Below are positions 38,490-51,947 of a stretch of DNA of 57,415 nt, in pieces. The notes below the pieces were generated by a model. The model made no database searches. It was not told the origin of the DNA and saw nothing but the letters and a program-made list of their open reading frames with translations. This DNA comes from a virus (lineage: Duplodnaviria; Caudoviricetes): positions 1-57,415 of the IMG/VR virus record IMGVR_UViG_3300022707_004402. One strand, given 5' to 3'. The translations under genes and the position numbers were made by a program. How positions within the stretch are numbered: position 1 is the first letter of the stretch; every line of letters starts with the position of its first letter.

Positions 38490-38606
38490 AGACTGCACCA
38501 GGATTCGAACCTGAACGGGCTGAAAGCCCACAGGGTGACCCCTGCGCGTCTACCACTGGTACCCCAGACAAAGTTTGGATATGCTTTGTATTTCCGCCAT
38601 ACAGTC
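38490..38606 (-). ncRNA. tRNA-like RNA (class II scaffold, expanded D-loop, collapsed anticodon loop)
   Basis: 7-bp acceptor GACTGTA/TGCAGTC; TGGCGGAA...GGTAGACGC D-arm with two inserted hairpins; GCAGGG-GTCA-CCCTGT anticodon arm; GGGCT-TTC-AGCCC variable arm; TCAGG-TTCGAAT-CCTGG T-arm. Confidence 0.75.
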
Positions 38607-38613
38607 CTTTAAA

Positions 38614-39676
38614 TTATTTATTCTCCCCAGCCTTATGAATTCTTTCTATTTCATCATCCACAGTTTTCTTTGCCAGCTGCAATTGTTCCAGAGTGGCACC
38701 AAGTAATGATTGCTGATTTGGGAACAAACTGAAAAGTAATTTATTGGTATACTCTTTGCCTGCCGTTTGAAGCAAGCCCTCGCATGATATGCTGTATTCA
38801 TTTTGAGCGGCTTCCAGATCAGTAATGGGAGTAGATTGTTTTGGAGTTGGATATTCCGCTGGTTTTTCAGTTTTATTTGCGGCCGGTTTTGTTGGCTTCG
38901 GTTTTGTTGGTTTTTCATCGGTTACAATCTCAGCCTCAGCCGTAGTAACATTGGCAAAATCTTCTCCATATTCCACTTTATTATCATGATCGATTGCTTC
39001 GAGCAGTTCAACGCTCATAGGCATTAGTATTGAATGTCGGCGTATGGCAGTTTTTCTTCCCATGGCAGAAAAATTATTAATCCAGGGGCCACTATCTTTT
39101 GCTTTAGACATTTCTCTGGCTCTATTCACACCCACCATTTATGAGCTTGGTGTAGCAATAAAAGAATTTAGGTTTTCCGACGCCATGATTGTCTCCATAG
39201 ATATGCTTTAAGTGGCCATTGGACCCAAATTCGTATTCAAAAAGATCACCCTCATAAACTACATCGGGATGAATATTGGCAAGCTGTCCTGATCGATAAG
39301 CCAGATCAATGTACCCCCGGTATCCAACAATAAAAGTAGCTTCCATCTTTTTGGTTTTTCCGTTTTTAAACGGGATTAAATGTGACTGTTGTAAGGGCCC
39401 GTCAGGCTCAAGTCCTAATTGACAAGAATCTTTAACAGCCAATATTATTGAGGTTGGAGAACAATCTAAAAGTATGGGATTTCTGGTTAAAGTTGCTTGA
39501 ACAACCTTAAAAATACGTTTTTCTGTCAAATGCTTTGGTGATATTGATACAATATCGGTTAAGGATTTTTCCAACTTAATCAGAGTTTCTGATTTGTTTT
39601 TTTCACGACTGGTAGTTAATTTTCCGGTGAGTTGGCTTTGCATGGATTCTGCGGCCATATCTTTTGTTCCGGCCAT
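38614..39676 (-). pseudogene. recT: RecT-family ssDNA annealing protein, disrupted by an apparent internal deletion/frameshift near 39130
   Basis: N-part: LLDCSPTSI...LGLEP, IVGYRGYIDLAYRSG, VVYEGD.FEY. C-part in another frame: SKAKDSGPW...MGRKTAIRR...PMSVE. About 10 conserved residues are missing at the junction. Confidence 0.8.
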
Positions 39677-44430: not shown

Positions 44431-45026
44431 TCTACCTTTTTTAAGACTTTTGATGCCAGATCGGTAAGCATTTGAGCCCCAGTGCTAATCTGAGCCCTCT
44501 CAGACTTTGAAATTGGCCGTATTTTTATCGGAGTTCGGGATTCATTGGTTTGTTCGTGGATTCCAGCCAAGTGATTAGAAGATGGGCCGGGACACGCAGA
44601 TTTCTCAGATTCATAGCTTTTGATGATTGCGGTTTCCTTCATTTTCCAATCTGATTCAGTCCAGTTGCAAAGTTCAATCCACCCTCCATATCGGATAACC
44701 ACGTTGTGAAGTGCCTGGTCCTGGAAGTCAATTGACTCATATGCCCCAAATTTGTGGATTGTTTTCCGAAGAACGCCAACCATGTTTCGGGCCATGTGTT
44801 CGCCAGATTGTCCGCCAGCTGACAAAAAGTCCTTAATTAGCGGGAATTTTGTCGTTGATGTTGGGGTGAAATTATTGATGATATTTTGGATTATAGAATT
44901 CCAAGCTGTGTTGTCAATGTACTTTAAGCTCTCCCAATAAAGATGAAGAACCTCCTTTTTTTCAATTTTTTGATTAAAATAAGATTGAAGCATGGTAAGG
45001 CTTTGATGAAACAACTCTACTGTCAT
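44427..45026 (-). CDS. Putative helicase loader/inhibitor-like replication protein (DUF6475-like)
   Basis: Directly after the initiator; YWESLK..D...KFPLIKDF and I..FGAY.SI.F.D..LH.VV..YGGW.ELC. Confidence 0.7.
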   Translation of the reverse strand: MTVELFHQSLTMLQSYFNQKIEKKEVLHLYWESLKYIDNTAWNSIIQNIINNFTPTSTTKFPLIKDFLSAGGQSGEHMARNMVGVLRKTIHKFGAYESIDFQDQALHNVVIRYGGWIELCNWTESDWKMKETAIIKSYESEKSACPGPSSNHLAGIHEQTNESRTPIKIRPISKSERAQISTGAQMLTDLASKVLKKVE

Positions 45027-45739
45027 TTGAAATCCTCCATCATTTTTGCCGTATCTTCGGCAATTTCTTGGGTTGGTATTTGTCGGCCGAAATTATTTTT
45101 ATTAAAATCTTTGCTCAACGAAAACACACCAGTCCATCCGTTCATAATGCTTTGGTTTAAGACATCAATGGAAGTTTGTTCGTCTCCATTCGATAGTTTT
45201 TTTAATTTTTCAATCATTAAATTAATTGCATGCTGGGTCATTGGGTTATTTTTGTTTTTTCGATATTCCATAAAAAACAAAAAAACTTGTGTAAAATTAG
45301 AACTCCAATCCCCTTGGGGGATTATAGGGGGTATATTCTCCTTCTCTTTCTTCTTCTTATTCTCCTTCTTCTTCTGGGGTGGATACTTTACCTCAGTAGA
45401 TTCGGAGTCTCTTCGAACTTTTGAGCTGTAATCGCTTGATATATCACAAAGTTTGGGACAAAAGATGGTTATATATTCTTCCGCCTTATGTACAATGTTT
45501 ATACGCCTTTTGTCCGAGTAATACCCAAGAACCTTCCAAAGTGTTCCCGATTTTATACCAGGAAAGTACCGCCTAAACACCTTTTTATTGATTTCTAATG
45601 GCTCCTCAACAGCATCCTCTTTGGCTAAAATTTCAAGAGTTCGCCAAAAAACATAGGGGCCAGCTGTTCCGAAAATCATTTCGGCCTCCATGAAATCCGG
45701 ATCGCTGTGTGTTGCCGAAAGGTGCTTAAACCATTTCAT
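45023..45739 (-). CDS. Phage replication initiator protein
   Basis: MKWFKH...DP N-terminus, Lys/Glu linker with PPIIPQG, C-terminal FMEYRK..K.PMT..A...KL...SIMNGWTG.F. Confidence 0.75.
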   Translation of the reverse strand: MKWFKHLSATHSDPDFMEAEMIFGTAGPYVFWRTLEILAKEDAVEEPLEINKKVFRRYFPGIKSGTLWKVLGYYSDKRRINIVHKAEEYITIFCPKLCDISSDYSSKVRRDSESTEVKYPPQKKKENKKKKEKENIPPIIPQGDWSSNFTQVFLFFMEYRKNKNNPMTQHAINLMIEKLKKLSNGDEQTSIDVLNQSIMNGWTGVFSLSKDFNKNNFGRQIPTQEIAEDTAKMMEDFK

Positions 45740-49953: not shown

Positions 49954-50115
49954 ATGGAAGTAAAGAAAATCAAATTTTCGGATAAGTGCCCCATGTGCGA
50001 TGGCCATGGTCACATCGAGGTTTTCTGTACAGATCATAAGCAGGATAGGCAAACCGAGATGTGTCCCGAGTGTCAGGGCGCCGGCATATTATCTGGACTT
50101 GCTGTTGTTAATTAA
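49954..50115 (+). CDS. Small DnaJ-type zinc-finger protein (53 aa)
   Basis: CPMCDGHG...CPECQGAG, two CxxCxGxG repeats; apparently leaderless. Confidence 0.7.
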   Translation: MEVKKIKFSDKCPMCDGHGHIEVFCTDHKQDRQTEMCPECQGAGILSGLAVVN

Positions 50116-50119
50116 TCAT

Positions 50120-50192
50120 TGCGGGGTAGATCAGTTGGTAGATCGTTGGGCTCATAACCCAAAGGCCACCGGTTCGAGTCCGGTTCCCGCTA
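50120..50192 (+). tRNA. tRNA-Met(CAT), initiator-like
   Basis: Cloverleaf with TTGGG-CTCATAA-CCCAA anticodon arm (three G-C pairs), unpaired position 1:72, ACCGG-TTCGAGT-CCGGT T-arm; CCA not encoded. Confidence 0.93.
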
Positions 50193-50199
50193 AATTTAT

Positions 50200-50265
50200 G
50201 TGGGCTGAAAGTCCTTAACTGGAGCCCTCCCACCGGTTCACCCCAGGGGACGAGGGGATGCCCAC
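50200..50265 (+). ncRNA. Structured RNA unit of array 2 (possible pseudoknot)
   Basis: GTGGGC/GCCCAC closing stem; GTCC/GGAC and CTGG/CCAG stems; loop CCCTC complementary to downstream GAGGG. Confidence 0.55.
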
Positions 50266-50273
50266 TCCTTTTA

Positions 50274-50335
50274 GCCAGGACAAGTGATTGCCTGGGAAAT
50301 CACGACCGTTTAGGCGTCACTGCCGGCGGCCTGGC
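50274..50335 (+). ncRNA. Structured RNA unit of array 2
   Basis: GCCAGG/CCTGGC closing stem; GTGATT/AATCAC hairpin whose loop GCCT can pair with downstream AGGC; followed by T8. Confidence 0.5.
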
Positions 50336-50345
50336 GCTTTTTTTT

Positions 50346-50491
50346 GGACCGTGGCGGAATTAGTAAGAGTCGCAATCTTACCAAAGACGCAGGCCGAAGT
50401 GGGTACGTGGATAACCAATCCTACAAAACGCGGGAATAGCGACCAGGACAGGCTTCCCGCAATCCCTTGGTGAAAGTCCTTGGGCGGTCCT
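50346..50491 (+). ncRNA. tRNA-like RNA with expanded D-loop and no canonical anticodon arm
   Basis: 7-bp acceptor GGACCGT/GCGGTCC; GGCGGAAT...AGACGC D-arm with an inserted GTAAGA/TCTTAC hairpin; GCGGGAA/TTCCCGC arm; T-like arm with a TGAAAGT loop. Confidence 0.65.
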
Positions 50492-50500
50492 AAAATTTAA

Positions 50501-50594
50501 GTGGAGGGAGTATTCCCCCTGATTCTACGAAAGTGGGAGACTGGGTAAAAAAGGGAATGCTGGCATTAAGCGAGGGTTGGCGAAATGCTTTCAC
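50501..50594 (+). ncRNA. Structured RNA unit of array 2
   Basis: GTGGAGG/CTTTCAC closing stem, AGTATTCCC/GGGAATGCT stem, TTCTAC-GAAA-GTGGGA hairpin, GCATT/AATGC stem; abuts tRNA-Ile. Confidence 0.55.
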
Positions 50595-50666
50595 AGGCCC
50601 GTAGTCCAACGGTTAGGGCGCCAGTCTGATAAACTGGAAACGATGGTTCAATTCCATCCGGGCCTA
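50595..50666 (+). tRNA. tRNA-Ile(GAT)
   Basis: AGGCCCG/CGGGCCT acceptor, CCAGT-CTGATAA-ACTGG anticodon arm, GATGG-TTCAATT-CCATC T-arm. Confidence 0.92.
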
Positions 50667-50684
50667 TTTAAATGAAGGAATTAA

Positions 50685-50855
50685 ATGAGACCTGAAATGG
50701 AAAGCCGGTTTAAAACCGACCACAAGCATGAATGGATTTTTTGGGGAGAAGAAACCAGCGTTTTTGAATTTCAGCCGTCCAAGCTAATTTATATCTGCGG
50801 GTATATTGGATGCGAATGCAGACGCGTTGAATTTTCAGGGCCGACAAAGATTTAA
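50685..50855 (+). CDS. Small hypothetical protein (56 aa, His/Cys motif)
   Basis: MRPEMESRFKTDHKHEW...YICGYIGC; AAGGA RBS. Confidence 0.5.
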   Translation: MRPEMESRFKTDHKHEWIFWGEETSVFEFQPSKLIYICGYIGCECRRVEFSGPTKI

Positions 50856-51240: not shown

Positions 51241-51323
51241 AAAGCTACCCCATCTTTTAAATTTTAATTAAATTAATAGCTGAGAGAACACATGGCCGAT
51301 TATGGTCGAAAGATTTGTTCAAA

Positions 51324-51947
51324 ATGGCTGCACAAAAGAAAGATAATGTTAAAGCACCTTCCGGCTTAAAAAATCCCAAATCCAATTTACAGCCAGCCTT
51401 TAATGCACCAAAACGTGTAGCCAAAAAGAAATCCAAGAAAAAGAAAAGACCAGTCGGTAGGCCCAATATTTCTCAAAAAAATCTCGTTGACTTTTTGTTT
51501 CTTTACGGTTCTACTTCGATGTCCATGAATTCAGTCGCAAATAAACTCGGAATCGGTGTGCGCACAATTTGGAATCATATCCAGAAAAACGACGAATTTA
51601 GGCGCAAATACGAAGATACCAGGAAAAATAAAGTGGAGGTCCTTATTGAGGAAATTCTGGATGTGGCCGACGATGGCACCAATGATTGGATGACCAACAA
51701 ACAGGGCGAGGATATCATAAATCACGAGGTTGTCCAGCGCAGCCGCCTCCGCGTTGATGCCCGAAAATGGCTGGCCTCCAAATTTGTTCCAAAAATGTAC
51801 GGAGAAAAATTACATACAGAGCACAGCGGTAAAATAAAATTTAATGATAACTCGGTTGAAGCCATGTCCCAAGAAGAACGCAAAAAGGAAATAGATCGAA
51901 TGATTTCTCTCAGACAGCTCCATCCCGATGCCACCTCCCAGAATTGA
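51324..51947 (+). CDS. terS: Terminase small subunit
   Basis: HTH region followed by EILDVADDGTND...EVVQRSRLRVDARKWLASKFVPKMYG, a typical TerS motif; start may be TTG 51315. Confidence 0.9.
   Translation: MAAQKKDNVKAPSGLKNPKSNLQPAFNAPKRVAKKKSKKKKRPVGRPNISQKNLVDFLFLYGSTSMSMNSVANKLGIGVRTIWNHIQKNDEFRRKYEDTRKNKVEVLIEEILDVADDGTNDWMTNKQGEDIINHEVVQRSRLRVDARKWLASKFVPKMYGEKLHTEHSGKIKFNDNSVEAMSQEERKKEIDRMISLRQLHPDATSQN

Follow-up and report, generated by a model that had tools for sequence, protein, structure and literature searches.

What is encoded between the two tRNA genes near 50 kb of a sediment phage contig, where a segment folds like a tRNA and yet is called by no tRNA finder? The window, meaning the whole 57,415-nt stretch that was analyzed, is an entire IMG/VR viral contig (IMGVR_UViG_3300022707_004402; Caudoviricetes) estimated to be 79% complete, and all coordinates are positions in it. 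Its DNA is carried by two runs (X1 and X2) of one marine-sediment metagenome study. An initial annotation had described 50346-50491 as a tRNA mimic with an expanded D loop and as the second copy of an RNA at 38490-38606. Comparison with relatives in other phages indicates a real, conserved, phage-borne tRNA-like RNA that spans 50345-50492 on the plus strand and is probably a tRNA mimic. We put the probability at roughly 55% that this segment encodes a ~147-nt non-decoding tRNA-like small RNA, conserved in unrelated phages within their tRNA islands or beside them, on the tRNA strand.

The tRNA-like nature proposed by the initial annotation was supported, and all of the helices it named occur in the sequence and in the minimum-free-energy (MFE) fold (Table 1). 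They include the D-loop hairpin GTAAGA/TCTTAC, a GCGGGAA/TTCCCGC arm within a middle region that had been put at about 70 nt and measures 73 nt, and a T-like arm with a TGAAAGT loop. The acceptor had been given as GGACCGT/GCGGTCC; the helix itself stands, and its register is corrected by the relatives to TGGACCG/CGGTCCT, with a U.U at pair 1:72 and T50352 as the unpaired U8. Within it, GGACCG (50346-50351) and CGGTCC (50485-50490) pair with probabilities of 0.95-1.0. The T-like arm is a 21-nt hairpin (CCCTTGGTGAAAGTCCTTGGG, 50464-50484) that abuts the 3' strand of the terminal helix, CGGTCCT following directly. It consists of three G-C pairs, a tandem U.U, two G-C pairs, and the 7-nt loop UGAAAGU; the two conserved U.U mismatches in its stem had gone unmentioned.

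ARAGORN called only the tRNA genes at 50119-50193 and 50595-50666 in the window. Neither ARAGORN nor Rfam reported a transfer-messenger RNA (tmRNA), in agreement with the initial annotation. Rfam 15 gave no match to 50346-50491 at gathering score and nothing credible at E ≤ 10, the sole overlap at that level being 'rmf' on the opposite strand (14.6 bits, E 8.8); a group I intron, an RNase P RNA, and a riboswitch were ruled out, with no Rfam match. The fold of 50346-50491 is weak when this sequence is taken singly (z = -1.81, 9 of 200 shuffles folding equally well), and its standing as more than a chance structure rests on homologues with covariation.

Those homologues were found by exact scans for the T-like hairpin that required 13-19 of its 21 nt. 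An exact 19-mer from 50457-50490 gave five loci in viral contigs, four of them true members on contigs of 100-120 kb, and a shifted 19-mer retrieved the same four contigs (4/4 loci). Family members made up 15 of the 19 hairpin-scan loci in a metagenome collection and one of five in a species-genome collection, the latter on a 180-kb contig of a metagenome-assembled genome. Loci L114, L122, L134, L138, L139, L141, L142, L144, and L145 were non-members. Because many loci are identical, the set reduces to nine distinct sequences besides the window, or ten in all. Eight are gut/rumen-type sequences (group b), and the remainder (group c) is L128, a sediment-type contig with a very different sequence, to which the fragment L136 belongs; the lineages are therefore three in total, namely the window phage, the gut/rumen phages of 100-120 kb, and L128. 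When 50100-50700 was compared by blastn with 50,697 phage records, only the tRNA-Met part matched. A search for the 5' motif with an insert of 15-45 nt returned two loci, both apparently chance matches in GC-rich coding-like sequence.

A covariance model of 138 positions (R1) was built from the eight group b sequences only. It found L128 with 41.4 bits (E 1.2e-9) and matched the window RNA at 50345-50492 over all 138 model positions with 33.9 bits (E 1.8e-7), and it had no further match in the window at E ≤ 10, including at 38490-38606. In all ten sequences, the terminal helix has seven layers, of which 6-7 are standard pairs; positions 8-9 are T-G, and the D stem of 3 bp is fully paired and followed by G and A. 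The 21-nt hairpin (CCCUUGGUGAAAGUCCUUGGG) is invariant across the family, the middle measures 73-85 nt and is unalignable between lineages, and a single unpaired base (A, C, or G) follows the 3' strand, with no CCA encoded. The D loop of the window RNA has 31 nt and a 6-bp hairpin, whereas the other nine sequences have a short (G)AATATAGA loop of 8-9 nt with no inserted hairpin. The D-loop expansion that had been taken to define the family is thus missing from nine of its ten distinct sequences; it appears to be a lineage-specific addition and gives no ground for excluding the window RNA.

The helices are maintained by paired changes. In the model-made alignment, six of the seven acceptor pairs and two of the three D-stem pairs (10:24 and 11:23) change on both sides. 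Covariation measures as high as those observed were reached by 0 of 500 shuffles, and registers slid by 1-3 columns contained 0-1 pairs changing on both sides versus the eight observed. In L129, G10-C24 has become C10-G24, a change that fits the tRNA-type D stem and breaks an alternative helix predicted by RNAalifold. Second contigs in X1 (4,786 nt, depth 20.4) and X2 (depth 3.7) match the window only at 50385-50490 and carry a variant of the same RNA. Mapped on the MFE fold, this variant has seven substitutions in the middle domain, of which six keep pairs and none is disruptive. Double compensatory changes convert G50434-C50456 to A-U and A50435-U50455 to G-C, and single changes convert G50401.U50422 to G-C and C50431-G50459 to U.G; A50436>G affects a base that is unpaired in the MFE fold and could pair as G.U with U50454. 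The first middle hairpin has lost its tip through deletions, 50457-50490 is unchanged, and the alignment ends at 50490. The RNA can be placed on the plus strand because the U.G and G.U pairs (pair 4 in L113; variant positions 50431 and 50436) would read as A.C mismatches in the complementary strand.

Conservation is confined to the RNA. The group b sequences are 89-98% identical to one another, and their 200-nt flanks are 54-75% identical in most pairs (12/15 upstream and 12/15 downstream). Compared with the complete 111-kb phage G002, the open reading frames (ORFs) of the window gave one weak tblastn match (28.6% identity over 56 amino acids, E 2e-4). No relative of any window ORF of at least 40 amino acids was found by tblastn in the 2-kb flanks of 12 family loci, where the two matches obtained were spurious and lay on RNA genes. 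Searches of viral contigs with the small terminase and the RecE-like exonuclease produced no confirmed relative, and the portal protein had no tblastn match in the 50,697 phage records. With no shared neighboring protein and near-absent protein kinship, it is therefore the RNA, and not a linked protein, that these phages have in common. These comparisons are evidence that the RNA is a unit under selection with sharp edges.

This pattern bears on two rival explanations. A decayed tRNA-Leu pseudogene or a functionless chance fold would account for the marginal fold (9/200 shuffles equal), the plainly tRNA-Leu-like 5' part, and the missing anticodon loop. We regard it as highly improbable, since its helices covary and are conserved in three lineages of unrelated phages and in the second contig of the same habitat, and since the sharp-edged island of conservation in the relatives already contradicts it; recent transfers of one dead fragment are argued against by the unalignable middles. 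The segment could instead act as DNA, either as an origin-like repeat or as a site of recombination or attachment that arose from a tRNA gene. Phages frequently have attachment sites that duplicate portions of tRNA genes, and the segment does lie where the leftward gene block gives way to the rightward one. Such a role seems barely credible: pairs are kept through G.U and U.G, which work on one strand only, both halves of the tRNA frame are present, and none of the 26 window ORFs scanned (only those of at least 100 amino acids) matched an integrase family.

The frame that is kept appears to be that of a class II, Leu-type tRNA, with a 7-layer acceptor, U8-G9, a 3-bp D stem, and A14. Class II tRNA-Leu genes share the 7-bp acceptor, U8, G9, a D stem of the form G(C/U)G...C(G/A)C, and A14 A15, and the first 15 nt of the window RNA together with AGACGC match ordinary phage tRNA-Leu genes (L044 and L083). 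Onto this frame, the anticodon and variable arms seem to have been replaced by a lineage-specific folded domain, and the T arm by the invariant 21-nt hairpin. Unlike tRNA-Leu, the window RNA lacks the 5-bp/7-nt anticodon arm and G18/G19, its T loop is UGAAAGU and not TTCRANY, and its T-like stem has seven layers with a tandem U.U. Because it has no anticodon loop, the RNA would be unable to decode. The partners that build the elbow have changed together, G18/G19 in the D loop and 55/56 in the T loop, which suggests that the elbow has been remodeled rather than lost. T-loop motifs follow the consensus U, G/U, N, purine, A, and we take the loop U-G-A-A-A-G-U closed by G-C to fit it.

A Leu-type frame raises the prospect of a chargeable tRNA that does not decode, aminoacylated by a synthetase that ignores the anticodon and serving as an amino-acid donor or an enzyme sink. 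Leucyl-tRNA synthetase does ignore the anticodon; the RNA agrees with class II tRNA-Leu genes at U8, G9, A14, and the D stem, and the window copy has A at the discriminator. Elsewhere in the family, however, the discriminator is C (8/10 sequences) or G (1/10), G18/G19 are absent, the T loop is non-canonical, the stack has 14 layers and not 12, and the general tRNA model of Rfam (RF00005) has no match over 50346-50491 at E ≤ 10. We consider charging improbable.

The genomic setting of the relatives is that of tRNA islands. The genomes G001, G002, and G003 contain 18, 26, and 15 tRNA matches, respectively, mainly clustered in 10-17 kb, and the family RNA lies on the tRNA strand inside the cluster or about 2-4 kb past it, at the end of the island in G002 and G003. 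Each of the genomes G001-G004 has one copy. In five cases (L113, L116/L125, L124, L126, and L117), a ROOL RNA (RF03087, 126-187 bits) lies 0.8-1.4 kb away on the same strand, upstream of the family RNA in L116/L125 and downstream in the others. In the window, the plus strand carries the structural genes, a leftward block holds RecE/RecT-like and replication genes, and a rightward block starts from ~50 kb; the RNA sits at the switch between these blocks, on the same strand as the flanking tRNA genes. Scans for sigma-70 promoters and terminators in the window, L113, and L128 performed near chance level. They showed no promoter-like site directly upstream of the RNA and no terminator-like site directly downstream in L113 and L128, the nearest upstream promoter-like site in L128 being ~210 nt away, and a strong promoter-like site (11/12) lies 30 nt downstream of the RNA in L113. 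The lack of promoter- and terminator-like signals of its own in these two contigs is consistent with excision of the RNA from a longer transcript.

The same arrangement would suit a cis-acting processing signal, in which an RNase P (or RNase E/Z) cleavage site splits the tRNA transcript and the excised piece has no function. The position of the RNA at borders of transcription units, with the L113 promoter-like site just beyond it and the island ending at it in G002 and G003, agrees with this, as does the absence of adjoining promoter- and terminator-like sites. For cleavage, however, an acceptor/T minihelix would suffice. A signal of this kind leaves unexplained why an identical 21-nt non-canonical hairpin occurs in phages with almost no proteins in common, and why the 85-nt middle has kept 89-98% identity beside drifting flanks, and we judge it unlikely.

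Several observations weigh against a non-decoding tRNA-like small RNA that acts as such. The lineages are only three, and the eight sequences from gut/rumen phages are closely related. Since the scans demanded 13-19 of the 21 nt of the hairpin, its invariance is in part a product of the search; a relaxed hairpin scan yielded no variant hairpin and added only two chance matches in repetitive sequence (L147 and L152). Folded singly, the sequences show no significant stability (z -1.81, -0.64, and -1.45). The acceptor and T-like arm stack in 14 layers versus 12 in tRNA, pair 1:72 is U.U in three of the ten sequences, the discriminator varies (A, C, G), and CCA is not encoded, so RNase P, the CCA-adding enzyme, or a synthetase would not necessarily recognize the RNA. 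Directly upstream of it in the window (50321-50345) is a terminator-like hairpin followed by T8, and no promoter-like site comes after this hairpin, which argues against simple co-transcription with tRNA-Met; the window scan gave three terminator-like sites versus 2.0 expected by chance. No conserved neighboring protein occurs at the 12 family loci. The runs carrying the stretch include no RNA run, the contigs examined from X1 and X2 being DNA.

Compared with known RNAs, the nearest analogue in setting appears to be the pair of T4 species 1 and 2 RNAs (rnaC and rnaD), small stable RNAs of 139 and 119 nt in a phage tRNA cluster on the tRNA strand, for which we know of no function. T4 rnaC has paired ends and a tRNA-type T arm, with a canonical GGTTCGAATCC T loop versus the invariant hairpin of the present family, and R1 found nothing at E ≤ 10 in T4 68000-76000 (L146), the rnaC/rnaD region. 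The bacterial Y RNA-like YrlA, which has a tRNA-like domain and is bound to Ro60/Rsr, is described as a non-decoding RNA that mimics the acceptor, T, and D region of tRNA (PMC4201824). It gave no Rfam match to 50346-50491 at E ≤ 10, and no TROVE (Ro60) gene occurs in the stretch, which is 79% complete. The ends of YrlA form a Ro-binding stem and not an acceptor helix, and its T loop is canonical. In the tRNA-like domain of tmRNA, too, the acceptor and T-type arm are accompanied by a smaller D region and by a middle unlike that of tRNA; unlike tmRNA, the family has no G3.U70 (pair 3:70 is G-C or A-U), and its middle of 73-85 nt lacks a pseudoknot series. Open frames exist in the middle of each lineage, but their register relative to the D stem differs, and a tmRNA-like tag frame was rejected. 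ROOL and GOLLD often lie near tRNAs in phages and prophages, as described in two reports (PMC5737381; bioRxiv 10.1101/2024.12.08.627333). They share the niche of the phage tRNA island, but are about 580-800 nt long and have no tRNA frame, and Rfam found neither in the window. Neither the family described here nor the D-loop-expanded one treated next was described in the literature searched. An earlier listing is possible among the 10,006 viral RNA candidates catalogued in PMC10690425, where tRNA-like candidates are mentioned; the hairpin and the four contig names are absent from those of its tables that were readable.

The RNA at 38490-38606 (minus strand) had been proposed as a second copy of the same family. 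A shared 5' frame was indeed found: GGACYGT(0-2)GGCGGAA matches twice in the stretch, at 38592-38607 (minus) and 50346-50359 (plus), versus 0.01 matches expected, and two matches occurred in 0 of 100 shuffles. In viral contigs, the pattern GGACYGT(0-2)GGCGGAAWT hit at least 109 loci, consisting of ordinary tRNA-Leu genes and chance matches; among the matches listed, those with a T loop are ordinary class II tRNA-Leu genes (e.g., L044, L083, and L015). GGCGGAA...AGACGC is thus a Leu-type D arm and the bases before it the acceptor plus U8 G9, which places both window RNAs on a tRNA-Leu-type frame. Their likeness arises because this D arm is that of ordinary class II tRNA-Leu.

The 38490-38606 RNA belongs to a widespread and much larger set of phage genes. 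A strict scan, in which 25-55 nt had to interrupt a Leu-type D arm upstream of a canonical T loop, identified 46 viral loci (L159-L204) with 35 distinct sequences, of which 28 have at least 6 of 7 acceptor pairs. The acceptor of these D-loop-expanded genes is often AGTCAGG/CCTGACT with A73; the hairpin in their D loop measures 28-51 nt, their middle is irregular, and in five loci the gene lies beside normal tRNA genes. ARAGORN, run on 33 of the 46 loci, called none of them, its tRNA-Leu calls in L165, L168, and L198 being ordinary genes with a chance upstream motif; the Rfam tRNA model reached threshold on two of 20 loci tested. A model of 28 D-loop-expanded genes from other phages (R2) matched 38490-38606 over its full length with 55.1 bits, versus 33 bits or less on ordinary class II tRNAs, and did not match 50346-50491 at E ≤ 1. 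Conversely, R1 scored 18.3 and 12.6 bits on only two of 32 D-loop-expanded loci. Because R1 and R2 match separately, the two window RNAs belong to two families, so that the recurrent family foreseen by the initial annotation exists among phages but does not include its supposed second copy. The two families appear to share Leu-type ancestry.

Resemblance between the families extends to the Leu-type acceptor/D frame, a D-loop hairpin after A14 A15, an irregular middle, occurrence in phage tRNA arrays, and escape from ARAGORN. The window RNA does have a hairpin after GGCGGAA (GTAAGA/TCTTAC, 50363-50381). D-loop-expanded genes, however, keep GGTAGACGC with G18 G19 after the insert and a canonical T arm (GGTTCRANTCC), where the window RNA instead has CAAAGACGC and the TGAAAGT loop. 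Its D-loop hairpin may have been acquired in this phage, in which the design of the other family also occurs. The 38490-38606 copy has a 6-bp stem with a 4-nt loop at the position of the anticodon arm. Among the D-loop-expanded members, L179:293-417 and L167:293-420 look as though they retain a regular 5-bp/7-nt anticodon arm; in L179, the loop AUGUAAG would correspond to anticodon GUA, with a long variable arm after it. Judged from such sequences, some of this family may still decode despite the D-loop hairpin. Over-long tRNA-like genes of 104-115 nt adjoin D-loop-expanded ones at L174:67-181, L179:169-283, and L178:591-694 (36-39 bits with the Rfam tRNA model).

Table 1. Features of the tRNA-like RNA in the window, with flanking and related genes. 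ROOL positions refer to the loci named.
Feature	Position	Strand	Basis
Whole tRNA-like RNA, tRNA-style positions 1-73, no CCA encoded	50345..50492	+	full-length R1 match
Acceptor-like helix, 5' strand TGGACCG; pair 1:72 is U.U	50345..50351	+	MFE fold, pair probabilities, family alignment
U8 G9 connector, invariant in 10/10 distinct family sequences	50352..50353	+	family table
D arm, stem GCG/CGC (50354-56 with 50388-90), then A14 A15	50354..50390	+	fold, family alignment
Hairpin inserted in D loop, GTAAGA 50363-68 / TCTTAC 50376-81	50363..50381	+	this copy only
Middle domain of 73 nt replacing anticodon and variable arms	50391..50463	+	MFE fold
Middle hairpin 1, GUGGG..CCUAC	50399..50424	+	MFE fold
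Middle hairpin 2, GCGGGAA..UUCCCGC	50430..50460	+	MFE fold
T-like arm CCCTTGG-TGAAAGT-CCTTGGG, invariant in 10 distinct sequences and partial L136	50464..50484	+	
Acceptor-like helix, 3' strand CGGTCCT; A50492 at discriminator place	50485..50491	+	fold, family alignment
tRNA-Met gene, upstream flank	50119..50193	+	ARAGORN, Rfam
tRNA-Ile gene, downstream flank	50595..50666	+	ARAGORN, Rfam
D-loop-expanded class II tRNA-like gene, canonical T arm	38490..38606	-	R2 55.1 bits, E 4.5e-12, full length
ROOL RNA	L113:3323-3934; L116:2933-3521	same strand as family RNA	RF03087

The surroundings of the RNA showed further features. In the upstream tRNA-Met, U1 and U72 are mismatched and three G-C pairs adjoin the anticodon loop, both marks of bacterial initiator tRNAs, and the U.U at 1:72 is common to this tRNA and the 50345-50492 RNA. 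Short repeats link the two genes: AAATTTATGTGG follows tRNA-Met and AAATTTAAGTGG follows the 3' end of the RNA (50192-50216 and 50471-50504), TGAAAGTCCTT at 50206 occurs a second time in the T-like arm, and CCACCGGTTC from the tRNA-Met T arm is found again at 50230 (50230-50239). The 150-nt spacer after tRNA-Met folds no better than shuffles (z -0.10). The 103 nt before tRNA-Ile (50492-50594, plus strand) have paired ends and z -2.33, with 4 of 200 shuffles folding equally well, and possibly form another small structured RNA, as judged from predicted folding. Just 5' of tRNA-Met, a 53-amino-acid ORF (49954-50115, plus strand) encodes two CxxCxGxG motifs (CPMCDGHG and CPECQGAG), which resemble the DnaJ-type zinc finger.

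Elsewhere in the window, the RecT-like gene (38614-39676, minus strand) is split into overlapping ORFs in different frames (39122-39676 and 38614-39138) that match two halves of one PHROG profile, and 38914-39130 in this region is not covered by contigs of the source run; either misassembly or a genuine frameshift may explain the split. Contig depth at 44972-45438 rises to 419 and 692, versus about 16 and 3 elsewhere, and many loose contig ends of CTT/CTC repeats lie around 45336-45375, a low-complexity stretch common to other DNA in the samples. The large terminase gene (1-1859) runs off the start of the contig, and that of the small terminase is found at 51.3 kb (51315-51947); the contig is cut inside the packaging module, with some of the genome missing between its ends.

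For the small RNA at 50345-50492, we propose that it would be transcribed together with neighboring tRNAs and excised by host tRNA-end processing, with RNase P acting at the 5' end and trimming at the 3' end, because it presents an acceptor/T-type coaxial stack. It would then accumulate as a stable L-shaped RNA unable to read codons and work in trans, as a scaffold or decoy with the shape of a tRNA. In this scheme, a partner shared by very different hosts would bind the invariant hairpin, and the variable middle would be a lineage-specific cargo, a design that resembles engineered scaffolds based on tRNA. That the 21-nt hairpin is unchanged between gut/rumen and marine-sediment phages sharing almost no proteins points to a partner common to distant hosts. 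A tentative and rather doubtful extension is that the two Leu-frame phage RNA families, with the invariant hairpin and with the expanded D loop, are effectors directed against universal host tRNA biology, or are docked in the ROOL/GOLLD cages of the same islands. The target that such effectors would block or hijack might be RNase P, the CCA-adding enzyme, the elbow-binding sites of the ribosome, or a tRNA-directed defense nuclease.

Phage tRNA islands are usually read as codon-supply kits, and they also hold the T4 species 1 and 2 RNAs, ROOL, and GOLLD. To these, the present results add a compact, sequence-defined family in which the tRNA frame is kept and decoding appears to have been given up. 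ARAGORN called none of the D-loop-expanded genes submitted to it and Rfam few of those tested, and counts and annotations of phage tRNAs therefore probably overlook a class of tRNA-derived RNA. If the RNAs do act as effectors, the invariant hairpin would give a first entry point, defined by sequence, to roles of these islands beyond codon reading.

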